Below, piece after piece: positions 5,613-23,267 of a stretch of 24,613 nucleotides of DNA. The stretch lies in contig PFWI01000051.1 of assembly GCA_002791075.1 (NCBI GenBank), positions 1 through 24,613 on the forward strand, written 5' to 3'. Every line of letters begins with the position of its first letter. The first letter of the stretch is position 1. Made by a program: the position numbers and the translations under genes. This DNA comes from a bacterium (Candidatus Ratteibacteria) CG_4_9_14_3_um_filter_41_21. GTDB taxonomy: Bacteria; Ratteibacteria; UBA8468. Below the pieces are notes generated by a model. It was not told where the DNA came from. It worked only from the letters and a program-made list of their open reading frames with translations, and did not search any database.

Positions 5613-6467
5613 TTGAATAATAATATCGCAGTTTTTAAGGTAGAAGGAGAGGGGATTGCCGAGGTTTGGGAGAAAAGTATTCTTGAACTCTGGGAGAAGG
5701 GGAAAAACATTAAGACGGAGTATGATGCTGCCGAGGACCCGCCCAGCAAAGACGCTGCCGTAATGATGCTGGTAAAAAATCCTTTTGTTGAGCCTAGGAT
5801 TCACCTTGCTTTCCCCGGGGGATTGGAGGATTTGGAGAAGTATCGGCAGGAAGTGGTCTTAGGGGTTCACGATCAATGGATTAATCCTCAAGCCGGCTCC
5901 TGGACCTATACCTATCACCAACGACTTTTTGGCTATCTTGATAAGATTAATCAGGTAGACTATATCGTGGAAAAACTGGCCAGTTCGGAGTATTCCCGCC
6001 GGGCCCAGGCCATTACCTGGATCCCTGCGGTTGATCCTCCTGCGGATGACCCTCCCTGCCTGCAAAGACTCTGGTGCCGGATTAGCCGAAGGCAGGATAA
6101 ACTCTTCCTGGATATGCATACTCACTGGAGAAGCCGCGATGCTTATCGGGCGGCATTTATGAATATCTTTGGCTTTACGGAATTGCAAAAAATTATTTGC
6201 GGGAAAATTTCGGAAAAAAGAAAGGAGAAAATTTTCGTCGGTTACTATTTAGATATCTCCGATTCCTATCACATTTACGGCTCCAATTTCAATGATTTTA
6301 AGGAACGATTCTTAAAACTGCAGAAAATGAGAAAATTTTATGATAAGGAAAGAATTAAGAGCCGAACGATGAGAAGTGATGACCCCGCCGCCATTGCAGG
6401 TTTTGAATATGGCAGAAAACTATTGGAGATGGAAAGAAAGAGTGGGAAGAGAGGGGCAACCTTTTAA
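5613..6467 (+). CDS. Thymidylate synthase (ThyA fold), divergent archaeal-like type
   Basis: SRRAQAITW, catalytic PPCL, HWRSRD.Y.A.FMN, DSYHIYG. Start moved to TTG 5613 because AGGAGG at 5601-5606 is at SD spacing. Confidence 0.8.
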   Translation: MNNNIAVFKVEGEGIAEVWEKSILELWEKGKNIKTEYDAAEDPPSKDAAVMMLVKNPFVEPRIHLAFPGGLEDLEKYRQEVVLGVHDQWINPQAGSWTYTYHQRLFGYLDKINQVDYIVEKLASSEYSRRAQAITWIPAVDPPADDPPCLQRLWCRISRRQDKLFLDMHTHWRSRDAYRAAFMNIFGFTELQKIICGKISEKRKEKIFVGYYLDISDSYHIYGSNFNDFKERFLKLQKMRKFYDKERIKSRTMRSDDPAAIAGFEYGRKLLEMERKSGKRGATF

Positions 6468-7435
6468 TGGCAATTCCTCTTTTGGTTATTCTTGGACCCA
6501 CGGCGGTTGGCAAATCGGAGATTGCTATGTCCCTGGCCAAAAGGATTCAGGGAGAGATTCTCTCTGCCGACTCAATGCAATTATATCAAGGGATGGACCT
6601 TGGCACCGCCAAGCCTTCTTTGCATCAGCAAAAAGAGGTTCCCCACCATCTTATTAATCTCCTGGAGCCGGATAAATCTTTTAACGTCTTTGAGTACGCT
6701 AAAAAAGCGGAAAAAATAATCGGAGATATTCATCAAAGAGAAAAGATTCCTATTTTAGTCGGCGGCAGTGGTCTTTATATCCGGGCAGTGATTGATGGGC
6801 TCTTTGAACATCCTAAGATAGATTCTCAGAAAAGATTAGAAATAAGCAGAAGCCTTGAAGGGAAGGATATTGCTTCTCTCTATCGGGAATTAGAGAGTGT
6901 TGACCAAAAAGCAAGCCAAAGAATCCATCCTCATGATTCTCGGAGAATCAAAAGAGCGCTGGAAGTATTTTATACCAGCGGTATCCCCATCTCTGTTTTA
7001 CAGAAAAAGAAACCGGAGAAGTTATTCCAGACTTTAATTATTGGAATCAAGCGGGAGAGAAAAGAACTCTACGAGAGAATCAATAAAAGGGTAGGGGAAA
7101 TCTTTGCTCAAGGGCTGGTTGATGAAGTTAAAACTCTTTTAGAAAAAGGATATAGCGAAAATTTAAACTCAATGCAGGCAATTGGCTACAAAGAGACTAT
7201 CACTTATTTAAAAAGGGAGAGAGGGTTGGAGGCGACGGTAGAGTTGGTAAAGAGGAATACCCGCAGGCTTGCCAAACGCCAACTTTCCTGGTTTCGCGGG
7301 GACAAAAGAATAAGGTGGCTTAACCTTAGCCGCCAGGAAACTCCCGAGCAAACTGCCGCGATTATTGAAAGAATTATAAACACGTCGTATAATTTGTTAT
7401 GTAGCGGTGCGATTCATCGCACAAATAAATTATGA
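6467..7435 (+). CDS. miaA: tRNA dimethylallyltransferase
   Basis: ILGPTAVGKS, SADSMQLYQGMDLGTAKP, VPHHLI, VGGSGLYIRA, IGYKE, TRRLAKRQLSWFR. Confidence 0.96.
   Translation: MAIPLLVILGPTAVGKSEIAMSLAKRIQGEILSADSMQLYQGMDLGTAKPSLHQQKEVPHHLINLLEPDKSFNVFEYAKKAEKIIGDIHQREKIPILVGGSGLYIRAVIDGLFEHPKIDSQKRLEISRSLEGKDIASLYRELESVDQKASQRIHPHDSRRIKRALEVFYTSGIPISVLQKKKPEKLFQTLIIGIKRERKELYERINKRVGEIFAQGLVDEVKTLLEKGYSENLNSMQAIGYKETITYLKRERGLEATVELVKRNTRRLAKRQLSWFRGDKRIRWLNLSRQETPEQTAAIIERIINTSYNLLCSGAIHRTNKL
7401..7422 (+). repeat. REP-like GTAG + palindrome, inside the miaA 3' end
   Basis: GTAGCG-GTGCGAT-TC-ATCGCAC; near-identical copy at 17684-17705. Confidence 0.7.
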
Positions 7436-8616
7436 AATATCTGATTATTATTGGGGATGGGATGGCTGATTATCCTCAAAGGGCATTAAGGGGTAAAACT
7501 CCTTTGGAGTTTGCTAAAACTCCCTGGCTGGATAAGATGGCTAAGGGAGGTTTTGTAGGCCGAGTAAAAACTATTCCCAGAGGATTAAAGCCGGGTAGCG
7601 ATATCGCTACCCTTTCCATTTTAGGTTATGACCCCAGAAAATTCTACTTCGGAAGAGGACCTTTGGAAGCAATTAATATGGGAATTAACTTAAGGGAAAA
7701 GGATGTTGCCATCCGCTGCAATTTTATTACCGAGAACGATGGAATTTTAGCCGATTATTCTGCAGGCCATATCCAAACTGCGGAAGCAAAAATTCTTATT
7801 GATTTTCTCAACCGCAAATTGGCCGATGAAAAAATTAGATTTTATCCGGGAGTAAGTTATCGCCATATCCTCATCTTCAAGGATTGTACCCTTAATCTTG
7901 GTGAAATCTCCACTACGCCTCCTCACGATATTATCGGGAAAAGGATTAAGGATTATCTCCCTTCCGGCAAAGATGCCAGGATTTTACGGGAATTGATGAT
8001 GGATTCCAGGATTTTGCTTCGCGATCATAAAATCAATCGAATCAGAATTGACCTGGAAGAAAATCCAGCCGATATGATTTGGCTCTGGGGAGAAGGGAGA
8101 AAAAAGAGTCTGCCGAGTTTCAGGAAAAGGTTTGGTTTTAAAGGTAGCGTTATCTCTGCCGTAGACATTGTCAAAGGAATTGGTAAATCCATTGGCCTTA
8201 CTTCTATTGAGGTAGAAGGAGCTACCGGATATCTGGATACCAATTATAAGGGTAAAGTGGAAGCAGCGATAAATTCTTTAAAGGAAAAGGATTTTGTTTT
8301 TTTGCATGTTGAGGCTCCGGATGAGGCAAGCCATTCCGGCCAGTTAAAACTAAAACTTAAGGCAATTGAGGATTTTGACAAGGAAATTATGGGAAGAATT
8401 TTTCCGCAACTTCTCGCTTTAAAAGAGTGCCGGCTCCTTATTCTTTCTGACCACATTACCTCTCTGAAATCCCGCACCCATTCAGCCGACCCGGTTCCAT
8501 TTCTTCTTTTCGGCAAAGGAGTAAAGCCCAATAAAACCACTTCCTTCAATGAAACTGCCGCTAAAAGGAAATTTTACCTTAAAGAAGGCCATAAATTGAT
8601 TGACCTCTTTTTTTAA
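7432..8616 (+). CDS. apgM: Cofactor-independent phosphoglycerate mutase, ApgM/archaeal type
   Basis: IIIGDGMAD, GKTPLE.A.TP.LD, PGSDIATLSILGYDP, GRGPLEA, SAVDIVKGIG, ATGYLDTNY, HVEAPDEASH, SDH.T, THSADPVPF. Confidence 0.9.
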   Translation: MKYLIIIGDGMADYPQRALRGKTPLEFAKTPWLDKMAKGGFVGRVKTIPRGLKPGSDIATLSILGYDPRKFYFGRGPLEAINMGINLREKDVAIRCNFITENDGILADYSAGHIQTAEAKILIDFLNRKLADEKIRFYPGVSYRHILIFKDCTLNLGEISTTPPHDIIGKRIKDYLPSGKDARILRELMMDSRILLRDHKINRIRIDLEENPADMIWLWGEGRKKSLPSFRKRFGFKGSVISAVDIVKGIGKSIGLTSIEVEGATGYLDTNYKGKVEAAINSLKEKDFVFLHVEAPDEASHSGQLKLKLKAIEDFDKEIMGRIFPQLLALKECRLLILSDHITSLKSRTHSADPVPFLLFGKGVKPNKTTSFNETAAKRKFYLKEGHKLIDLFF

Positions 8617-8664
8617 CCGCTCATCTTCATCCTCTCCCCTAAGGAGGGAGAGGGAAGGGAGGGG
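8616..8664. repeat. C-rich/G-rich hairpin repeat, copy 1
   Basis: Stem CCTCTCCC 8631-8638 / GGGAGAGG 8646-8653; same layout as 10014-10060 and 15968-16016. Confidence 0.65.
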
Positions 8665-8667
8665 ACA

Positions 8668-9138
8668 GTGGCTATTGTCTATTTGGGAATTGGAACAAAC
8701 TTGGGAAGAAGGAGAAAGAATATTGAGACCGCTTTAAGATTATTAAAAAGGAAAAAGATCAAGATTAATCAAGTTTCTTTCTTTTTTAAGACAAGACCGG
8801 AAGAAGGGGTAAAAGGCTCCTATTTTCTTAACGGTGTGGCAGAGATAGAGACAGAATTGCCTCCTCAGAAACTTTTAAAATTTCTTAAAGAGACAGAAGA
8901 GCGCCTGGGGAGAAAAATAAATCATAAAAGAAAAGAGCCGCGGACAATTGATTTAGACATTCTTTTTTATAATTCCCTTATTTTGAATGAGCCTGACCTT
9001 ATTATTCCTCATCCAGGATTTAACAAGAGAAAATTTGTTTTAAGGCCCTTGAATGAAATTGCTCCATCTTTTAAGGACCCGGTAACCAGAAAAAAGATAG
9101 AGACCCTTTTTAAAGAAAATTGTAGTGCGAGGCTTTAG
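8668..9138 (+). CDS. folK: 2-amino-4-hydroxy-6-hydroxymethyldihydropteridine diphosphokinase
   Basis: VYLGIGTNLG, FLNGVAEI, E..LGR, PRTIDLDILFY, LIIPHP, RKFVLRPLNEIAP. Confidence 0.92.
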   Translation: MAIVYLGIGTNLGRRRKNIETALRLLKRKKIKINQVSFFFKTRPEEGVKGSYFLNGVAEIETELPPQKLLKFLKETEERLGRKINHKRKEPRTIDLDILFYNSLILNEPDLIIPHPGFNKRKFVLRPLNEIAPSFKDPVTRKKIETLFKENCSARL

Positions 9139-9144
9139 CCTCGC
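9122..9144 (+). repeat. REP-like GTAG + palindrome at the folK/panC junction
   Basis: GTAGT-GCGAGGCT-TT-AGCCTCGC, 8-bp perfect stem. Confidence 0.6.
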
Positions 9145-9151
9145 TAATAGG

Positions 9152-9991
9152 ATGAAGGTCATTAAGAAAAGCAAGGAATTACAAACTCTGATAGAGAGAG
9201 AAAAGAAGAAGGGAAAGATAATTGGCCTGGTTCCCACAATGGGGTATTTGCATTCCGGACACATTTCTCTGATTAAAAGAGCAAAAAAGGATTGCGGTAT
9301 AGTTGTGGTCAGTATTTATGTCAATCCAACGCAATTTGGGCCGGGAGAGGATTACCAAAGATACCCCCGGGATTTAGAAAGGGATAAGAAATTGGCTAAG
9401 GAAGCCGGAACCGACATTCTCTTTGTTCCTTCTGACGAGGAGATTTATCCGGACTCTTTTCATACCTATATCCAGGTAGAAGAGTTATCCGGGAGATTAT
9501 GCGGTGTTTCCCGGCCGATTCATTTCCGAGGGGTTGCCACAATTGTGGCAAAATTATTTAATATTGTTAAACCGACAAAAGCCTATTTTGGGTGGAAGGA
9601 TGCGCAGCAATTGATTATTCTTAAGAAAATGGTAAAAGATTTGAATATGGATGTTGAGGTTGTTGGCCTGCCCACGGTCAGGGAGAAGGATGGTTTAGCA
9701 ATAAGTTCCCGAAATAAATATTTAAGTAAACAGGAGAGAAAGATTGCTCCCATTCTTTACCAGGCTCTGGTTAAAGCGAAAAAAATGGTAAATTCCGGAG
9801 AGAACAACAGCGCCAGGGTTTTGCAGCAAGCAAAGGATTTGATTAAAAAAAAGAAAGGAGTAAAAATTGATTATCTCAAAGCCATAAATTTAATCGATTT
9901 AAAGGATGCTAAAAAGATAAAAAAGAATACCTTAATTGCAATAGCCGCCTGGATTGGAAAAACCAGATTAATTGATAATGTAATAATTTGA
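9152..9991 (+). CDS. panC: Pantoate--beta-alanine ligase
   Basis: VPTMGYLHSGH, SIYVNPTQFGP.ED...YPR, RPIHFRGVATIVAKLF, YFG.KD.QQ, REKDGLAISSRN, TRLIDN. ATG 9152 preferred because the upstream in-frame codons are the REP hairpin. Confidence 0.96.
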   Translation: MKVIKKSKELQTLIEREKKKGKIIGLVPTMGYLHSGHISLIKRAKKDCGIVVVSIYVNPTQFGPGEDYQRYPRDLERDKKLAKEAGTDILFVPSDEEIYPDSFHTYIQVEELSGRLCGVSRPIHFRGVATIVAKLFNIVKPTKAYFGWKDAQQLIILKKMVKDLNMDVEVVGLPTVREKDGLAISSRNKYLSKQERKIAPILYQALVKAKKMVNSGENNSARVLQQAKDLIKKKKGVKIDYLKAINLIDLKDAKKIKKNTLIAIAAWIGKTRLIDNVII

Positions 9992-10013
9992 TAGTATAGG
10001 AATTCCCTTTTTC

Positions 10014-10060
10014 CCTCTCCTCAATCCTCCCCCTCGAGGGGGAGGAGATAGGTCGGGGTG
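10014..10060. repeat. C-rich/G-rich hairpin repeat, copy 2
   Basis: Perfect 20-bp palindrome CCTCCCCCTCGAGGGGGAGG at 10026-10045, just after panC. Confidence 0.75.
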
Positions 10061-10064
10061 TAAT

Positions 10065-10094
10065 TTGATTTTTGATTAGAATCTACCGTATAAT
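10065..10094 (+). promoter_or_regulatory. Putative sigma70 promoter for the integrase
   Basis: TTGATT (10065-10070), 18-bp spacer, TATAAT (10089-10094). Confidence 0.55.
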
Positions 10095-10212
10095 GTTAAA
10101 GTTAGGTGTTAGTATTGAGGAATTGATAAAATAAATTTATGGCAAGCGTAAAATCGGTAAGAATATACAGGAGGGGGAAATTGTAGTTTCTTTCTCGTAC
10201 GATCCTAAATTT

Positions 10213-11316
10213 GTGGCTAAAGTTAAAACCATTGAGGGCCATAGGTGGCATCCGGATAAAAAGTATTGGAGCTTTCCTAATTCCAACGGAACTTTAGAAA
10301 AGATTTTAAAAGCTTTTGAAGGCGAGGAAATACATATAGACACAGCCTTACAAACTAAACTCACTTCCGTCATTGCGAGGGACGGGCTTCCTCGCTCGTC
10401 ATTGCGAGTCCCGATAAAATCGGGACGAAGCAATCTCAAGATAGGCTCGGAACAGGTTCCGCAATCTCAATTTGATGACCTTAAACGTGAACTTCTTTCA
10501 AGAAAATACAGCCATAAAACGGTCAAAGGTTATCTCTATTACAACAGAGATTTTCTGAGTTTTATAAACAAGAACCCCACTGAAGTTCAGGAAGGAGACA
10601 TAAAGGACTACCTTGTTCACCTCGCCGAAGAAAGACAGTCTGCCACGTCCACATTGAATCAGGCAATAAACGCCCTGAAGTTCTATTACGGGACCATGCT
10701 TAAGAAGAAGTTCATCTATGAAGTCGTAAGGCCGAGAAAGGACAAAATACTGCCGGAAGTCTTAAGTAAAGAAGAAGTCAGCCGCATTATAAAAAGCACA
10801 GCGAATATCAAGCACAAGGCAATTCTGATGACCATATACTCCGGTGGCCTGAGGCTTGGTGAAACAGCCCGACTGGAGCAGGCGCATCTTGACAGGGATA
10901 GAATGCTCGTCTTGGTAAAGGGAGCAAAAGGGAGAAAAGACAGGTATACACTTCTTTCCCCCAAAGCCCTGGAATTAATTGACCTGTATATTAAGCGGTA
11001 TGAACCCCGAAAGTGGCTTTTTGAAGGAGCAAAAGCAGGCAGGCATCTTTCGAAAAGGACGATAGAGAAGGTTTTCGATCAAGCCTGCGAGAGGACTGGC
11101 ATAAAGAAAGATGTGTCGGTTCATGACCTTCGGCATAGTTTCGCTACGCACTTGTTGGAATCCGGAGTTGATCTCAGATACATACAGGAACTGTTAGGCC
11201 ATGCCAGCAGTAAGACGACCGAAATATATACCCATGTCAGTACAAGGAGTTTGGGAGAAATACGAAGTCCGTTGGACAATCTCGATTTTGAAGGAGGCGA
11301 GAGTGACAAAACTTGA
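10213..11316 (+). CDS. Tyrosine recombinase/integrase (IntI/XerD-like, no IntI-specific insertion, extra N-terminal module); start uncertain
   Basis: Catalytic R (GLRLGE), K (KGAKGRKDR), HxxR (HDLRH), H (LLGH) and Y (IYTHV) intact. SAM-like domain R.YS.KT.K.Y...Q..NALKFYY. The frame stays open upstream to 10135 with no ATG. Confidence 0.92.
   Translation: MAKVKTIEGHRWHPDKKYWSFPNSNGTLEKILKAFEGEEIHIDTALQTKLTSVIARDGLPRSSLRVPIKSGRSNLKIGSEQVPQSQFDDLKRELLSRKYSHKTVKGYLYYNRDFLSFINKNPTEVQEGDIKDYLVHLAEERQSATSTLNQAINALKFYYGTMLKKKFIYEVVRPRKDKILPEVLSKEEVSRIIKSTANIKHKAILMTIYSGGLRLGETARLEQAHLDRDRMLVLVKGAKGRKDRYTLLSPKALELIDLYIKRYEPRKWLFEGAKAGRHLSKRTIEKVFDQACERTGIKKDVSVHDLRHSFATHLLESGVDLRYIQELLGHASSKTTEIYTHVSTRSLGEIRSPLDNLDFEGGESDKT
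10369..10437 (+). repeat. Palindromic GTCATTGCGAG...GAAGCAATCTC element inserted in frame in the integrase
   Basis: Two GTCATTGCGAG copies (10369, 10398), stem GTCCCGAT-AAA-ATCGGGAC (10408-10426), ending GAAGCAATCTC. Confidence 0.75.
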
Positions 11317-11400
11317 TGCAAGGAGAGAGGTTTCGCTCTTCGGATAGATGTAAAATAACCGCACCATGGTGCAGCTACAACCCCAATTTTGGGATAAATG

Positions 11401-11449
11401 TTGCACCTGAGTGCAATTGTGAACAAGTTATATGAAATTCGGCTTGGTA
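11401..11449 (+). other. attI-like recombination site / left cassette junction
   Basis: GTTATAT core at 11427. 11427-11449 is the reverse complement (22/23) of 13236-13258. 11412-11420 TGCAATTGT is the reverse complement of 13334-13342. Extra inverted repeat TTGCAC-CTGA-GTGCAA at 11401-11416. Confidence 0.7.
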
Positions 11450-11476
11450 GATTTTGTAAATTAGTGGAGATAGATT

Positions 11477-12529
11477 ATGAGAGATAAAACGAACACTTTG
11501 AGTTTATTCGGTAACGAATTGTTAATGCAGAAAGATGAGGAGAAAAAAGGTAGAACTAGCGAGAGGCTTGAGCGATTAGACCTTCATGGAGAATTACATA
11601 AAAAGATATTACCATTATGCAGGTTAAAATATGGAGATATATGGGAGGACCCAATTAATGGACATAAAGTTGGTGTATTAGATGCAACAAAACAGGAAGA
11701 TGTTAAAAAGATTGTGGGTAATGAAAAAGTCAGATTAGTTGTAAATGACCCGCCTTATAATGTAGCAGTGGGAAATGCAAATACAAACGCTCTCTTTAAA
11801 ATAAATATAGAAAAATATTTAGAGTTTTCAAAAGAATGGGTGCAAAATGTAATTTCAGTGACGGATAAAGATGCTCATTTTTATATATGGTTAGGTGCAG
11901 ATTATAGAGACAATCTTCAACCTCTTCCAGATTTTATTATCCTAATGAGAAAGTTTAAGGAATTAAGACCTAAAAATATTATTACCTTAAGAAATCAGAG
12001 AGGTTATGGAACACAAAAAAACTGGATGTGGGTCAGGCAGGAACTTCTTTATTATGTTAAAGGTAATCCAAATTTTAATGTATCTGCTGAATACACCGAC
12101 ATTCCTAAAATATTAAGAGGGTACTACAAAGAGGTAAATGGTAGGATTACAGAAAACTTGGAAAGAAGTAAATCAGAGTATATTAGGGCTGGTAATGTCT
12201 GGGTAGACATTCAGCAAGTATTCTATAGAATGGAAGAAAATGTCCCTGGTTGCTATGCCCAAAAACCTCTAAAGGCAATAGAAAGGATAATATTATCAGC
12301 GACAGATGAAAAAGATTTAGTTGTGGACTTCTTTGCTCATTCAGGAACAACCTTGATTGCTGGAGAAAGGTTAAAAAGGAAGGTTTATACATTTGATATT
12401 GACCCTATATTTGCTGAGATTACGATAAGGAGATTAGAGCATTTTAGGAGAACAGGGAAAACTGGATGGCAATGGCAAAATCCTTTCCCCCAATTGAAAG
12501 ATACAAAGGAGAGACAAAAATGGATTTAA
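11477..12529 (+). CDS. Amino-DNA methyltransferase (N6A/N4C), beta-class motif order
   Basis: Motif IV VVNDPPYN precedes motif I VVDFFAHSGTT; AQKPLKAIERII; preceded by GGAG. Confidence 0.9.
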   Translation: MRDKTNTLSLFGNELLMQKDEEKKGRTSERLERLDLHGELHKKILPLCRLKYGDIWEDPINGHKVGVLDATKQEDVKKIVGNEKVRLVVNDPPYNVAVGNANTNALFKINIEKYLEFSKEWVQNVISVTDKDAHFYIWLGADYRDNLQPLPDFIILMRKFKELRPKNIITLRNQRGYGTQKNWMWVRQELLYYVKGNPNFNVSAEYTDIPKILRGYYKEVNGRITENLERSKSEYIRAGNVWVDIQQVFYRMEENVPGCYAQKPLKAIERIILSATDEKDLVVDFFAHSGTTLIAGERLKRKVYTFDIDPIFAEITIRRLEHFRRTGKTGWQWQNPFPQLKDTKERQKWI

Positions 12530-13230
12530 AACAATTGAGACAATATTTGGAAAACCTCAGCGAGAACTTGAAACCCAAAAATCACCAATTGCTTACTGCA
12601 AGATTGGGCAGTTTAAAATCGGTTTTCCCTTTTAATGAATATGAGTACATTCTGATGTTTTTACGCGATAAAGAAATTATCACATTTCAGCAGTATGAAG
12701 AATTGAGAAAGAAATATGTATCTTCCAATCCATATTTAGAACTTTACGGGATTGCTCCTCGTACGTTTGGAGAAATATGGGGTCATCCTCATGTTATGGA
12801 TATAGATAACAGATTTAAAAAACCTAACAAGGAACTTGATTCCACTTACGAAGGCCAATATGATTTATGGTTTGAAGGTATAAAGGTAGAAATAAAAGCT
12901 TGCCGAGCAATAAATACTAAAAAGCGAGGCAATATAATGGAGAAGGCTTTAAGATACGATTCTGACGAGCCGTTTTGGATGAATTATCAACAGATTAAAG
13001 CGGATATGGCTGATGCTTTTGTTTTTATTGGTGTATGGGTAGATAAGATAGTATATTGGGTTATGTCTAAAAAAGAGATTAAGAAAAATAGATACTTGAG
13101 CCCTCAACATAGAGGGGGGATAGAATATCAAATAGGAATAACACATAAGAATATTAGCGAATTTGATGTTTACAAAGTAGAGCCGAACAAACTTGGAGAT
13201 GTAGTTCTCAAAAAGGGTAAAAGAAGATGA
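12520..13230 (+). CDS. Putative type II restriction endonuclease, PD-(D/E)XK fold
   Basis: QYDLWFEGIKVEIKACR fits PD-(D/E)XK; overlaps the MTase stop; SD AAGGAG before ATG 12520. Confidence 0.7.
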   Translation: MDLKQLRQYLENLSENLKPKNHQLLTARLGSLKSVFPFNEYEYILMFLRDKEIITFQQYEELRKKYVSSNPYLELYGIAPRTFGEIWGHPHVMDIDNRFKKPNKELDSTYEGQYDLWFEGIKVEIKACRAINTKKRGNIMEKALRYDSDEPFWMNYQQIKADMADAFVFIGVWVDKIVYWVMSKKEIKKNRYLSPQHRGGIEYQIGITHKNISEFDVYKVEPNKLGDVVLKKGKRR

Positions 13231-13235
13231 AATTG

Positions 13236-13333
13236 TACCAAGCCGAACTTCATATAACACGGTGTAAAAGACTTCGCTTCGCTCCGTCTAAATTCGGCTT
13301 TGCCGAACTTCTTTTACACCGAAACCGTTATCT
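13236..13333 (+). other. attC-like site
   Basis: R''-like ATATAAC (13252-13258), perfect 12-bp stem CGGTGTAAAAGA (13260-13271) / TCTTTTACACCG (13310-13321), inner hairpin TTCGGC-TTT-GCCGAA, R'-like GTTATCT (13327-13333). Confidence 0.7.
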
Positions 13334-13451
13334 ACAATTGCAGGCAAGGTTGGCTAATATAAAAAGAGAAAGAGTGGGGGAGAATGCTTTCAAATATAAG
13401 TAAATTTACAGAAAATATTGGGTATCCTGAAGATTTTATCAATAAAATAAA

Positions 13452-13480
13452 GTGATAAAAATGGCGAAACGGTGTATAAT
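13452..13480 (+). promoter_or_regulatory. Putative sigma70 promoter upstream of panD-lnt
   Basis: GTGATA (13452-13457), 17-bp spacer, TATAAT (13475-13480). Confidence 0.45.
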
Positions 13481-13607
13481 ACAACATAGAAGGTTTACTC
13501 TTCGGGACTAGAGCAAACGTGATAAGTCCCATTAGGCACAATGCCAGGGTTTAAAGAGAAAGAGTAAAATATTATTTCAGGAGAACTTAACTGTTACCTA
13601 TTAAATT

Positions 13608-13958
13608 ATGCAGAGAATTATTTTAAAGTCAAAGATTTCAGAGACGACTGTTACGGATACCAAACTTCATTATTCAGGCAGCATCACCATTGATGAGGGA
13701 TTAGCCGAAAGTGCGGATATTTTTCCCGGGGAAAATGTTCAGGTGCTGAATTTGAATAATGGGGCGCGAGTAGAAACTTACTACATCAAAGGAAAACGCA
13801 ATTCCGGGATTGTTTGTATCAACGGGGCGGCGGCGCGCTGGTTCGAAAAAGGGGACAAAATTATTATTCTTTCTTACGGGATTTTCGGGGACGAAGAAGC
13901 AAAAAAATTCAAACCGAAAATTATTAGAGTTGATGAAAAGAACAGGGAGATAGAGTAG
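13608..13958 (+). CDS. panD: Aspartate 1-decarboxylase proenzyme
   Basis: [18 protein letters not shown] self-cleavage site, [26 protein letters not shown]. Confidence 0.93.
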
Positions 13959-13963
13959 GGGTA

Positions 13964-15454
13964 ATGAAAAAGAGCATATTCTTCTCCATCCTCTCTGGTT
14001 TACTCCTCATTCTTGCCTTTCCTAAATTTGACTGCGAAATCGTAGCCTGGTTTGCTTTAATTCCCCTTTTTCTGGCGATCCGTGATTTTCGGTATTCTTT
14101 CTTTTCAGGTTATCTCTTTGGTCTCATCTTTTTCGGAGGAAGCCTTTTCTGGCTCGCCAATGTTACCCGAATAGGTTTTCTCGTCTTGATTCTTTATCTT
14201 TCCCTATATCCCGGGCTCTTTGCCTTTCTTTTCACTAAATGGAATCTTCCGGCTAAAAATTTTTTTGGCGCAGGGCTCTGGATTCTTTTAGAATACGTTG
14301 AAAGTCATTTCCTTACCGGTTTCCCCTGGTTGCTTCTGGGATACTCTCAATATAAAAATTTAAGATTTATTCAAATTTCCTCAATTTTTGGCGCCTACAT
14401 TGTCTCTGGTCTTGTTGTGCTGATTAATATCGGTTTAAGCCAACTTTTCTTCAAACAGAAAAAGAGCATCGCAACAAAAATGCCGAAGGTTTCCATTGCT
14501 TTGTCCTTTTTTATCCTTTTACTCGCTTTCTTTTTTGGCATTGGTCAAATGAAAAAGATTTCCGGAATTACCGCAAAAGAGATAAAAGTATCGTTGGTTC
14601 AGGGCAATATTCCTTCGCTTCAGAAATGGGAAACTTTCTCCAAAGAAAAAAATATCAAGATTTATTCTGCCCTCACCGAAAAAGCAGCCAAAAATAATCC
14701 TGATCTGGTTATCTGGCCGGAAAGCGCGATTAGTACCTATTTGAAATTGGACCGACCAATCCAAAAGCGTCTTTTTGAATTAGCCAAAGCAAAGAAATTT
14801 TATCTTCTCGCCGGTTCGTTGGACCAACGAAGCGGCAAAAACTATAATAGCGCTTTTTTAATTTCTCCTCAGGGACGAATCAAGGATACTTATGACAAGA
14901 TTCATCTGGTTCCTTACGGAGAATATGTTTTAGGGGGAGAATCTTTCCCTTTCCTGAAAAGGTTTGTGGCGAAAGCGGCTGGTTTTATTCCTGATTTTAG
15001 TCCAGGAGAAAATTACACAATCTTCTCTTTACCTGAAGGAAATTTTGCTACTTTAATCTGCTTTGAGGATATTTTTTCGGAACTTTCCCGAAGATTTACT
15101 AAAAAAGGAGCAAACTTTTTGGTTAATATTACTGATGATAGTTGGTTTGGGGATTTTGGCGCTTCTCAGCATTTTGCCGCTGCTGTTTTCCGGGCGGTAG
15201 AAAATAGGAGATATCTTCTACGGACCGCAAACACCGGGCTTTCAGCTATTATTGCTCCCTGGGGGGAAATCTTAAAAAAAGTAGAGGAAAATGGTAAAAA
15301 ACTCTTTGTCTCCGGTTTCTTGGTTGGGGAAATTAAGCCGGTTTCCTCTTTAAGTTTTTATACTAAATTTGGCGATGCTCCTTTAATTCTTCTTTGTATA
15401 GGATTGATCGTTGTTTTAATTACCACGAAATTACGAAAATTAAACAAGTTATAA
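13964..15454 (+). CDS. lnt: Apolipoprotein N-acyltransferase
   Basis: Multi-TM N-terminus, TGFPW.LLGYSQ, VQGNI, nitrilase triad WPES / YDKIHLVPYGE / LICFED, NITDDSWFG, RTANTGLSA. Confidence 0.95.
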   Translation: MKKSIFFSILSGLLLILAFPKFDCEIVAWFALIPLFLAIRDFRYSFFSGYLFGLIFFGGSLFWLANVTRIGFLVLILYLSLYPGLFAFLFTKWNLPAKNFFGAGLWILLEYVESHFLTGFPWLLLGYSQYKNLRFIQISSIFGAYIVSGLVVLINIGLSQLFFKQKKSIATKMPKVSIALSFFILLLAFFFGIGQMKKISGITAKEIKVSLVQGNIPSLQKWETFSKEKNIKIYSALTEKAAKNNPDLVIWPESAISTYLKLDRPIQKRLFELAKAKKFYLLAGSLDQRSGKNYNSAFLISPQGRIKDTYDKIHLVPYGEYVLGGESFPFLKRFVAKAAGFIPDFSPGENYTIFSLPEGNFATLICFEDIFSELSRRFTKKGANFLVNITDDSWFGDFGASQHFAAAVFRAVENRRYLLRTANTGLSAIIAPWGEILKKVEENGKKLFVSGFLVGEIKPVSSLSFYTKFGDAPLILLCIGLIVVLITTKLRKLNKL

Positions 15455-15542
15455 AACCACGAATTTATCGAATTTTACGAATTAGAGTAATTCGCGTTAA
15501 TTCGTGGTTAGAAAAAGGAAATTCCTATGGTATTAAATTATG
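15444..15542 (+). repeat. 99-bp repeat, copy A (inverted duplicate of 23169-23267)
   Basis: 15444-15529 is the exact reverse complement of 23182-23267; two mismatches follow, then 11 more matching bases. Internal CGAATT-unit hairpin. Confidence 0.9.
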
Positions 15543-16019
15543 GAAAGAATAAACGAATGCGAAAAGGTTCTTGGCTACTGGTTTAAAAGGAAATCTCTTC
15601 TTAAGGAGGCGTTAAATCACTCTTCCTTTGCTTACGAGAATAACCTTATCTCTAATGAAAGAATGGAGTTTTTAGGCGATAGCATCTTAGGATTAATCGT
15701 AAGTGTCATTCTCTATAAGAAATATCCAAAAGCGGCTGAGGGTGACTTAACCGAGAAGAGAAGTTCTTTGGTTAGCAGAAAACATCTTGCCTCTGTTGCT
15801 AAAAAGCTCTGCTTAGGGAAGTTTCTTTTTTTAGGCAAAGGCGAAGAAGCTCAAGGCGGAAGGCAATTAGCCTCTAATCTTGGCAATAGTCTGGAAGCAA
15901 TAATCGGAGCTATTTATCTTGACGGGGGGTTGCTTCCGACCAGAAAATTTATTAAAAAACTATTTTTCCCCTCCCCTAAATTCCCCTCCCTCCAGGGGAG
16001 GGGATGGAAGGGAGGGTGA
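15540..16019 (+). CDS. rnc: Ribonuclease III catalytic domain only (no dsRBD)
   Basis: ALNHSS, SNERMEFLGDS, EGDLT..RSSLV, LGKGE, LEAIIGAIYLDGG. Ends at 159 aa, with the tail encoded by a hairpin repeat. Confidence 0.85.
   Translation: MERINECEKVLGYWFKRKSLLKEALNHSSFAYENNLISNERMEFLGDSILGLIVSVILYKKYPKAAEGDLTEKRSSLVSRKHLASVAKKLCLGKFLFLGKGEEAQGGRQLASNLGNSLEAIIGAIYLDGGLLPTRKFIKKLFFPSPKFPSLQGRGWKGG
15968..16016. repeat. C-rich/G-rich hairpin repeat, copy 3 (encodes the rnc tail)
   Basis: Stem TCCCCTCCC 15982-15990 / GGGAGGGGA 15996-16004, between convergent rnc and yidC. Confidence 0.7.
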
Positions 16020-16022
16020 TGG

Positions 16023-17609
16023 TCACTTTTTTCCGCTAACAAAGCGCTGCTCGGCAATACTTAAAATATTCATTACCAGCCAATATAGGAGCAGGCCCGA
16101 AGAAAAGGAATAAAAAATAAAAGTAAAGAAAATTGGCATCATCAAAGCCATCATTTTTTGATTGGGGTCGGTAGTAGTCATTTTCTGCTGGATGAGCATA
16201 CTTGCGCCCATTAAAACAGGTAGAATGTTGATACCGCCTCCGGGGAAATTGGGGATAGCAAGGACGGTATCAGGTAAAGAAAGGTCTTTAATCCAGAACA
16301 TAAATTTTGCTCCCCTCAAGATAATGGCCGAGCGCAGGGCGAAGAAGAATGCAATAAAAATGGGCATTTGGGCAAGCATCGGCAAGCATCCGCCCAAAGG
16401 GTTAATTTTATACTTACGGTAAAGTTCCATCATCTCTTTATTCATTAACTGGGTGTTTCCCTTATACTTTGTTTTCAAGTCTTTAAGGTAGGGCTGTAGT
16501 TTCTGCATCTGGCTAATGGAGCGAACTGAACTTCGGGAAAGAGGAAAAAGAAAAATTTTAACCAGAATGGTAAGAATAATAATTGCCCAGCCCCAATTGC
16601 CAACGAGTTGATAGAGGAAAGTAAGAATTTTAAGAATAAATCTTCCCAAAGTGACAAAGAACCCTCCTTCAAGCGTTTTCTCCACCCCTTTTTCTTCGGC
16701 TTTGGCAATTTCGTAATCTGCAGGTCCGCCGTAGAAGAAGAGTTTTTTCTCTGCGATTCCGTTTTCAGGAATAATGATTGAAGGAAAATTAACTCCGAGA
16801 ATCAGCCTTTTTTCTTCAGGATAGATGAAGGCATCGGTTTTTGATTTTGGCTGCAAAAATAAAAGGCAATATTGAGACTTTTGCGCAATCCATTCAATTT
16901 CAGCAATAGTTTGTTTCTTTTTGAATTTTCTGGTGCTGAAGCGATTAATTTTACCATCTACCGAAATTTGACCCTCTTCAATATCAGGATCCCTTCCGGA
17001 GGGTTTCTTCTGCGAAGAAGAAAATCCCGAGCCACAAAGAATTCCTATATTAGCCAATGATTTTTCCTGCGCAGAAACGTTTTCTATTTTTATCGCTAAG
17101 TCAAAACCATAGCCATCGTTATTAAAACTAAAACTTTTTGTTACGATTAACCCATCTTTAGTTTTCCCCTTTAAGGCGACCTTCCCAATTTCATTTTCCT
17201 TATTTAAAAGGAGAGATTTCTTATCCGCCGAAAAGTGTATTTCTTTTCCCCAGCCAGTAAATTCTAAGGGACAGAAGGGTAAGTCGGCGGGAATAACCGA
17301 AAAAAAATCTTCCCCCTCTCTGCGAAAATTCTTCAGCCCTAATTTTAAAACAGCGCCTTCTCCGGAAAGGATTAACTTGTAAAGATCAGTCTCTACGGGA
17401 ATTTCCGCAACTAAATGTTTTTTTTCGGGAACTTTGGGGAAGGCAGGAAGGATTTCTTTCTGGAGGGCAGAAGTTTGAGCATTTTCTTTTTTTGAAATTT
17501 CTTTCCTCTCTTCTATTTGTTTTTTGGGGAATTTTTTAGCAAAATAAGCATTAGAGGCGATTAGAACTAAAAGAGACAAAAAAAATGCTAAAGCCGTCCG
17601 TTTTTCCAT
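16023..17609 (-). CDS. yidC: Membrane protein insertase YidC
   Basis: N-terminal TM, periplasmic domain, GNWGWAIIILTILVK..LFPL, NPLGGCLPMLAQMPIF, WIKDLSLPD, GLLLYW. Confidence 0.96.
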   Translation of the reverse strand: MEKRTALAFFLSLLVLIASNAYFAKKFPKKQIEERKEISKKENAQTSALQKEILPAFPKVPEKKHLVAEIPVETDLYKLILSGEGAVLKLGLKNFRREGEDFFSVIPADLPFCPLEFTGWGKEIHFSADKKSLLLNKENEIGKVALKGKTKDGLIVTKSFSFNNDGYGFDLAIKIENVSAQEKSLANIGILCGSGFSSSQKKPSGRDPDIEEGQISVDGKINRFSTRKFKKKQTIAEIEWIAQKSQYCLLFLQPKSKTDAFIYPEEKRLILGVNFPSIIIPENGIAEKKLFFYGGPADYEIAKAEEKGVEKTLEGGFFVTLGRFILKILTFLYQLVGNWGWAIIILTILVKIFLFPLSRSSVRSISQMQKLQPYLKDLKTKYKGNTQLMNKEMMELYRKYKINPLGGCLPMLAQMPIFIAFFFALRSAIILRGAKFMFWIKDLSLPDTVLAIPNFPGGGINILPVLMGASMLIQQKMTTTDPNQKMMALMMPIFFTFIFYSFSSGLLLYWLVMNILSIAEQRFVSGKK

Positions 17610-23168: not shown

Positions 23169-23267
23169 CATAATTTAATTGCATAGGAATTTCCTTTTTC
23201 TAACCACGAATTAACGCGAATTACTCTAATTCGTAAAATTCGATAAATTCGTGGTTTTATAACTTGT
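23169..23267 (-). repeat. 99-bp repeat, copy B (inverted duplicate of 15444-15542)
   Basis: Base-by-base comparison gives 97/99 identity; begins at the last codons of the upstream gene, as copy A does. Confidence 0.9.

Follow-up and report, generated by a model that had tools for sequence, protein, structure and literature searches.

In integron biology, the insertion carried by the integrase IntI is held necessary for recombination of folded attC sites, and search tools define integrons by that insertion, which the reverse-orientation integrases of Spirochaetota also keep. Within integrons the attC site is used as a single strand (PMC3458562), and the class 1 primary site attI1 has the core sites S1 and S2 and the accessory repeats DR1 and DR2. 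Typical Spirochaetota IntIs are called 'reverse orientation' by Ghaly et al. (10.1101/2022.02.06.479319), and that survey reports for Archaea a putative attI directly downstream of intI, semi-conserved across phyla, as well as six IntIs for 539 attC sites, only recombinases matching an IntI-domain profile having been accepted and most arrays being integrase-less (10.1101/2022.02.06.479319). The CTX phage further shows that Xer enzymes can exchange one strand pair with a folded single-stranded DNA hairpin (PMC3442271). Here we describe a platform that works like an integron but does not pass the test of the IntI insertion. It lies in the window, the whole 24,613-nt stretch of contig PFWI01000051.1 (GCA_002791075.1), in which coordinates are counted from the first letter. 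A 3.6-kb island between panC (9125-9991) and panD (13608-13958), within the interval 9992-13607, holds, in this order, a recombinase gene, about 110 bp of structured DNA, a 1,900-bp cassette, a hairpin site and a tail of about 280 bp before panD. The stretch is probably the attI and the first cassette of an integron-like gene-capture platform with a co-oriented Xer-type recombinase just upstream, and a 9-bp palindrome singled out by the initial annotation would be a by-product of that arrangement.

The cassette is absent from a contig of the same species. Three contigs encoding an identical recombinase (L090, L091 and L092) were looked up, and two further contigs (L087 and L089) were recovered in a metagenome scan with the left side of attI. 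L090, a 26-kb JGI metagenome contig with the same gene neighbours as the window (thyA, miaA, folK, panC, panD, lnt, rnc and yidC), aligns to positions 6139-11431 (99.85% identity) and 13327-17216 (100%), the two pieces having the 5-mer GTTAT in common and exactly 1,900 bp being missing. What is missing as one block is cassette 1 (11428..13327, + strand), which comprises a DNA methyltransferase (N6_N4_Mtase in Pfam, 11477-12529, + strand), a 254-aa open reading frame (ORF) without a Pfam or NCBIfam family match (12466-13230, + strand) and an attC site. The initial annotation had predicted that removing the cassette would bring TGCAATTGT (11412-11420) and ACAATTGCA (13334-13342) together across the GTTAT shared by both ends (11427-11431 and 13327-13331). 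These coordinates are all correct, and the predicted cassette-free sequence occurs in nature, the L090 junction reading TGCAATTGT-GAACAAGTTATCT-ACAATTGCA (L090:5268-5312, ...GAGTGCAATTGTGAACAAGTTATCTACAATTGCAGG...).

This observation is further strengthened by alleles with other cargo. L091 carries an identical attI followed by another cassette, L092 an identical attI followed by GTTATCTGCAATTGCGGGTAAGG and an ORF containing KYPEDFINK, and L087 the same 27 nt of the attI left side followed by other cargo; all three diverge from the window directly after GAACAAG|TTA. The prediction had been staked on empty or differently loaded strains sharing the junction, and it withstood that comparison, L090, L091, L092 and L087 using the same left junction. 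L089 corresponds to the platform of another locus, L006, with a different first cassette, and diverges at the same point. Four alleles of one species (empty, restriction-modification cassette, L091 and L092) differ exactly after GAACAAG, in an attI that adjoins the integrase gene and takes cassettes at G|TT, as expected of an integron.

Contig depths and break points from Logan assemblies of four groundwater runs agree with this picture. The depth of cassette 1 is one-third to one-half of that of both flanks (left flank/cassette/right flank, 155/48.6/105, 144/45/148, 32/11-17/27 and 16/7.7/15), contigs break at 11427-11431 and 13326-13332, and in run X24 a contig end joins a different attC (...CTTTTATGCTGGGAA) to 13326. 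No contig joining 11431 to 13332 was present among the Logan records listed for the four runs, a negative that says nothing about the empty allele there, the listing being incomplete and rare variants being dropped from such contigs. Given the empty allele, the alleles with other cargo, and the depths and breaks, cassette turnover at a fixed junction is therefore a matter of direct observation: cassettes are replaced, and are precisely present or absent, at G|TT. The restriction-modification cassette is a discrete unit, present or absent in a natural population, with its junction inside the shared GTTAT. A free circular cassette would be expected to read ...GAAACC-GTTAT-ATGAAATT... at its exact junction; a back-joint from 13326 to 11427 in run X10 contains 10 extra letters and does not match that junction.

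The layout of the primary site was derived by fetching 80 loci with related recombinases (from Nitrospirota, WOR-3, Desulfobacterota, Spirochaetota, Atribacterota and many archaeal lineages), 47 of which, from bacteria and archaea, were anchored on the crossover G for the family statistics. They share, at fixed spacing, a distal palindrome (P1), a CCCAAATTTGGG-like box of the CCCAAAT type, a proximal palindrome (P2) and a core reading T-K-C-G-K-A-T-A-T | GAACRAG | TTA-K-N-Y-GAAATT. The window's P1 (TAACCGCACCA / TGGTGCAGCTA, 11356..11377) is paired at 9/11 positions, its CCCCAATTTTGGG box (11381..11393) corresponds to a motif CC[ACT]A[AT][AT] at the same offset in 33/47 loci, and its P2 (11397..11420) is followed by the central region GAACAAG (11421..11427), where the crossover falls between G11427 and T11428. 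A-5, A-4, A-1 and G0 are invariant in 48 loci, and G0, T+1, T+2 and A+3 are kept in 44-48 of 48. Two symmetric motifs that had been pointed out upstream of the junction, TTGCAC-CTGA-GTGCAA (11401-11416) and GCACCATGGTGC (11361-11372), are present as described; they lie in P2 and P1, respectively, conserved elements which co-vary between lineages as accessory binding sites would. L087 holds an orphan attI fragment (box, P2 and core; L087:2280-2337, 58 nt, 98% identical to window 11382-11439) that has a cassette downstream, no P1 and no recombinase upstream. Many related loci have a third small palindrome, TCTGGC-n4-GCCAGA, after the stop codon and about 85-100 nt left of the crossover, which is not found in the window.

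Pairing within P1 and P2 averages 8.3/11 against 5.8 in shuffles, and pairing of at least 9/11, seen in 0.3% of shuffles, occurs for P1 in 22 loci and for P2 in 16. The arms fall into four classes (CGAA, CGAC, CGCA and GCAC, the window having a drifted GCAC), and P1 and P2 belong to the same class in 35 of the 36 classifiable loci. This concordance was used in preference to the identity of P1 and P2 left arms within and between loci (5.0 versus 4.0 of 11), a measure blurred by register shifts. Simple hairpins need no such agreement, which makes a sequence-specific, co-evolving binder likelier, and P1 and P2 may be accessory recombinase sites with the role of DR1 and DR2 in attI1. It is unlikely that they instead act as hairpins of RNA or of single-stranded DNA, such as an attenuator separating the recombinase gene from its cassettes, with the palindrome itself irrelevant. 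Their position between a co-oriented gene and promoterless cassettes, the retention of palindromy while the sequence changes, and the mismatches in P1 (A/C type 26, G/T type 9 across the 47 loci), which hint at a strand preference, would all suit such a role. However, P2 mismatches are without strand bias (16 versus 19), pairing alone would not impose the shared arm class, and the right half of P2 (11410-11420, which includes 11412-11420) carries the core-arm sequence. Moreover, neither palindrome is followed by a T-run, terminator totals are comparable to those of shuffles (2 versus 1.2) with no attI site listed, and an Rfam search of 9900-13700 at E up to 1 returned no match. A promoter and terminator scan of 11200-13650 likewise gave counts no different from shuffles.

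The core was examined by sliding the left arm against the reverse complement of positions +1 to +9. A dyad signal appears only at a 7-bp spacer (4.87/9, with 14 loci reaching at least 6), whereas other registers give at most 3.15 and at most one locus; the dyad has 9-bp arms and is centered 3 bp left of the crossover G. Because the signal is confined to that spacer, the conserved core appears to be an ordinary tyrosine-recombinase core, with the right half of P2 as its left arm and the R' box of the neighbouring cassette as its right arm. Directly after attI, seven loci (L007, L009, L017, L026, L028, L035 and L085) have short R'-loop-R'' hairpins without an ORF at the crossover (e.g., GTTAAGCAAAATG...CATTTTGCTTAAC), in which GAT or GAC sometimes replaces GTT.

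The right arm in the empty allele comes from a second cassette. The window's R' box at 13327..13349 (+ strand, GTTATCTACAATTGCAGGCAAGG) contains ACAATTGCA and has a variant, the GTTATCTGCAATTGCGGGTAAGG noted above, at the attI of L092, where it precedes a homologous ORF. In the window, a 23-codon ORF (13384..13455, + strand) ends ...YPEDFINKIK and is probably a truncated remnant, L092 having ...KYPEDFINK... at the same position. The DNA after 13327 is therefore read as a second resident cassette with ACAATTGCA in its R' box. At 13 or more other places an attI or attC is followed by a member of this R' class, GTTA-K-C-Y-G..ATTGC-R-GG, and all four P2 classes occur beside it. A possible decayed attC of cassette 2 (GGCGAAAC-GGTGTATAATAC..., 13462..13550) has no matching L' arm and is 77% identical over 52 nt to R''-L'' of an attC in L044; apart from this weak match, no R'' fitting the R' of cassette 2 was found downstream in the window. 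The tail of cassette 2 is bracketed by a 13-bp exact direct repeat, AAAGAGAAAGAGT (13363-13375 and 13553-13565), and Logan depth is raised at about 13559-13597.

The initial annotation had proposed a different primary-site architecture, possibly with accessory binding sites; the accessory palindromes are borne out by the conservation of P1 and P2, whereas the 9-13-9 palindrome does not survive as the family's primary site, its right arm belonging to the R' box of the next cassette and the palindrome itself disappearing on cassette insertion. By the comparison it had recommended, of sequence 3' of homologous integrase genes, 48 other junctions (the 47 related loci and the window's own occupied junction) have a mean of about 2/9 when scored in that geometry, none showing the symmetry. 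The occupied junctions of the window and L091 form neither palindrome nor hairpin. The 9-mer itself occurs in the window only as the two exact copies TGCAATTGT and ACAATTGCA. CAATTG, part of TGCAATTGT, is self-complementary, and AATTG is a common ending of R' boxes; about ten unrelated R' boxes therefore pair with the window's left arm at 6-7/9, and the perfect 9/9 match is unusual without being extreme. In all likelihood the palindrome is a by-product of two adjacent functional elements rather than a recognition unit.

The annotation's own reading, in which the palindrome is the true recognition unit in the window's lineage, two monomers sitting on TGCAATTGT and its complement with the crossover in the middle, is in our view quite improbable. 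The match is perfect, and among 2,352 left-by-right combinations from 49 junctions (the 47 loci, the near-duplicate L074 and the window's occupied junction) none reaches 8/9 and three reach 7/9. The palindromic site exists in L090 and folds at −8.5 kcal/mol (z = −2.5), the R' variant of L092 keeps 7/9 against the left arm with two differences that would be T.G wobbles, and GCAAT/ATTGC is retained in L006 and L011. The 13-bp spacer, however, differs from the 7 bp of the family dyad and is too long for the 6-8 bp overlap that tyrosine recombinases use. In addition, the first insertion moves the right arm 1.9 kb away, yet occupied alleles keep exchanging cargo, other junctions lack the symmetry, and the same R' class stands beside unrelated P2 sequences.

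The cassette end has the anatomy of an attC. In cassette 1, the R' box (GTTATATGAAATTCGGCTTGGTA, 11427..11449, + strand) is complementary at 22/23 positions to 13236-13258, the sole mismatch being A11437, at the conserved position 11, opposite C13248. The attC (13236..13327, + strand) consists of R'' (13236-13258), an unpaired A (13259), L'' (13260-13271), a loop (13272-13309) with CTAAATT at 13288-13294, L' (13310-13321), an unpaired AAACC (13322-13326) and G13327; L'' and L' form a 12-bp perfect stem, and the bottom strand folds at −31.1 kcal/mol against −26.0 for the top strand. Among 37 attC-like sites that a scan detected in 25 loci, almost every one has the same order of parts: ...TAAC, a single unpaired base, one half of a stem of 11 bp or more, the loop, the second half, five unpaired bases ending AAC(C), and GTTA. 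The window's spacers of 1 versus 5 nt are therefore the family norm. Cassette starts match their own R'' at 10.3/14 and neighbouring starts match at 7.4/14, a signature of units that circularise at G|TT. Position 11 of R' is A in place of G, the complement of R'', in 18/21 well-matched pairs, whereas positions 1-9 and 12-15 nearly always pair; the top strand thus has an A.C mismatch there, and the bottom strand a G.T wobble. In the circular-form site the bottom strand folds better in 21/21 cases, by a mean of 5.1 kcal/mol. The motif C[CT]AAA is present in 28/37 attC loops against 6% of shuffled loops and appears to echo the CCCAAAT box between P1 and P2.

Ten related loci had at least two attC sites passing the scan, and the family thus includes multi-cassette arrays; with three false hits of the scan removed, three remain in L012, L042 and L044. 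The window itself has one intact and one decayed cassette. The depth over attC 1 reaches 1,021 in run X10, which speaks for an abundant attC family. Over 78 nt, the window's attC shares 91% identity with one in a Methanocellales metagenome-assembled genome (MAG; L056:7337-7414), and the R' start of cassette 1, GTTATATGAAATTCGGCTTGG, recurs at L059:5077- and L085:8686- (a Methanobacteriota and an Atribacterota locus), which together suggest a cassette pool shared between domains. A terminator-like stem with a T-run lies on the + strand inside the attC loop (13293-13316), and the attC may also end cassette transcripts.

It is highly improbable that cassette 1 is a transposon-like element with terminal inverted repeats and a 5-bp GTTAT target duplication, independent of the recombinase: its 29-nt inverted repeat (11427-11455 versus 13230-13258) and the GTTAT at both ends would suit one, but Pfam and NCBIfam reveal no transposase domain, only the methyltransferase and the 254-aa ORF without a family match, the right repeat stops 68 nt short of the element end (13326) and leads into a hairpin whose fixed geometry was seen at 37 sites, each of them downstream of a recombinase of the same family, different cassettes occupy the same point, and the position-11 mismatch and bottom-strand bias fit a folded attC.

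The enzyme of the integron-like platform is a tyrosine recombinase of Xer type (10135..11316, + strand). It matches Phage_integrase (E = 6e-39) and SAM_4 in Pfam and XerA_Arch in NCBIfam (227 bits, cutoff 220), and it scores 205 bits against TIGR02249, in two pieces and below the cutoff of 265. Aligned to VchIntIA (2a3v), it has 25 residues (252-276) where IntI has 67 (173-239), and it is colinear with XerA (5hxy); the IntI insertion, the additional domain that distinguishes IntI around patch III, is therefore absent. The catalytic set R-K-H-R-H-Y is complete, R214, K239, H304, R307, H330 and Y339 being invariant in 19 family members. An N-terminal module shows a weak match to Pfam HARP (E = 0.013), and one relative, with 26.1 bits, passes the cutoff of 25. 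The first ATG, GTG or TTG comes only after conserved N-terminal residues (..GEIVVSFSYDPKFV..), the frame being open from 10135 (ATT) with GTG at 10213 as the first common start; the database protein (P0001) has 392 aa, and either an unusual start codon is used or the start has been lost. The recombinase linker includes the in-frame translation of a palindromic repeat (10369-10437), and in homologues this linker holds different segments that also derive from repeats (VIARSEATKQS, SPLVGEGKGE). A mutual-information comparison of arm class with recombinase residues placed K286 of the catalytic domain first, a column with K, R/H or A depending on the class; since arm classes follow phylogeny, this candidate was given no weight.

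Relatives of the recombinase number in the thousands. In 36/80 loci the contig stops within 500 bp past the gene, against 11/80 with an end that close upstream, an excess expected from variable or repeated DNA downstream. The window's recombinase, used as query, was not found in three other genomes of the taxonomic family (completeness 77-93%). In two related genera (G001 and G003) panC and panD are separated by 33-40 bp of spacer unlike the window's flanks, and with the two genes adjacent there, the whole platform is read as an acquisition. Elsewhere in the window, a 99-bp inverted duplicate (15444-15542 and 23169-23267) begins with ACAAGTTATAA and holds a hairpin AACCACGAATT...AATTCGTGGTT that lacks attC geometry; the copy at 15444-15542 is also present in L090. 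Logan contigs starting at 13326 would end near this copy, as calculated from record positions.

Several points weigh against the integron-like reading and its treatment of the palindrome. The recombinase lacks the insertion that classical integrons need to handle attC. The "empty" allele, because cassette 2 lacks an intact attC, is the attI platform plus a fixed relic of that cassette and not a proven naive site, and no intact attC for cassette 2 was found, no site at 13462-13550 passing the scan. The window's own dyad at the 7-bp spacer is weak, counting 4/9 with either R' box. The assignment of P1 and P2 as accessory sites and the exchange of the bottom strand are both drawn from sequence. 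As to the palindrome, the 9/9 match is rarer than cross-pairing predicts (0/2,352 at 8 or more), and the R' class consensus has G at +7 and +15, as in L092, where the window has A at both, each creating a Watson-Crick pair with P2. Selection for complementarity in the window's lineage is therefore conceivable, and the rarity of the palindrome, together with these two differences from L092, leaves a residual doubt about its being a by-product.

Under the integron-like reading, the recombinase would bind the core through the right half of P2 as left arm, the 7-bp GAACAAG and the R' box of the next cassette as right arm. The bottom strand would be exchanged at G|TT with a folded single-stranded attC hairpin, as its anatomy and the integron precedent suggest (PMC3458562), and the product would then be resolved by replication, the classical integron route. 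P1, P2 and perhaps the CCCAAAT box, which recurs in attI and attC loops, may be accessory recombinase binding sites; more speculatively, that box and the HARP-like module could form a second recognition pair. The palindrome would arise only in the cassette-free allele, where 13 bp separate the right half of P2 from the R' box of the decayed cassette 2, to which it would be complementary by chance.

Taken further, the locus may represent a second, widespread integron lineage of bacteria and archaea, a proposal we hold at even odds. It would be defined by an Xer-like, HARP-tagged recombinase without the IntI insertion, an attI of about 100 bp with a 7-bp-spacer core and two co-varying accessory palindromes, a CCCAAAT box common to attI and attC loops, and strand choice by the G.T wobble at position 11 and not by extrahelical bases. 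If so, the enzyme lacking from many attC arrays filed as integrase-less could be a recombinase of this kind. A search of the literature outside subscription journals found no published description of such a recombinase or site type; new in this work are the set of alleles found in nature at a single attI, the conserved layout of attI, the core with a 7-bp spacer and the wobble at position 11. One wild groundwater population contains four alleles of one attI, with one junction, beside a recombinase without the IntI insertion, which is direct evidence from nature that cassettes turn over through, or at any rate next to, an enzyme other than IntI. The elements of the conserved plan (P1 and P2, the CCCAAAT box, the core with a 7-bp spacer and the wobble at position 11) offer mutable targets and a DNA signature for finding platforms where integron searches report only orphan attC clusters. 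A narrower lesson is that the predicted empty site is real, while its palindrome is not a conserved feature.

Compared with known systems, the platform resembles classical integrons in that its tyrosine recombinase adjoins a primary site with a crossover at G|TT, and in that its family's cassettes end in an imperfect palindrome with AAC...GTT, have starts complementary to their own R'' and favour the bottom strand. Measured against the classical attC (RYYYAAC/GTTRRRY, folded bottom strand marked by extrahelical bases), the AAC/GTT, the two stems and the bottom-strand bias (21/21) are present, and the geometry differs: the R boxes measure 14-23 bp and are mismatched at a fixed position, 11, the unpaired spacers are 1 nt versus 5 nt, and the L stem has no extrahelical base. 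As in attI1, the family's primary site has extra recombinase-type sites beside the core, but these are two palindromes and not direct repeats. Unlike classical integrons, the window's recombinase lacks the IntI insertion, carries an N-terminal HARP-like module and is encoded in the same orientation as its cassettes, the last a trait shared with the reverse-orientation integrons of Spirochaetota. The Xer-type fold without the IntI insertion and the core of two inverted arms with a short spacer recall Xer/dif; however, the window's gene sits in a panC-panD island, is followed by variable cassettes and is missing from the three other family genomes, and it does not behave as a housekeeping Xer, though its XerA_Arch score lies just above the cutoff. 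Like the archaeal integrons of Ghaly et al., the family has attC arrays in Archaea, and unlike them it has no IntI domain, although many archaeal MAGs have arrays that start with it. Archaeal arrays led by a recombinase other than IntI would account for part of the gap between IntI and attC numbers.

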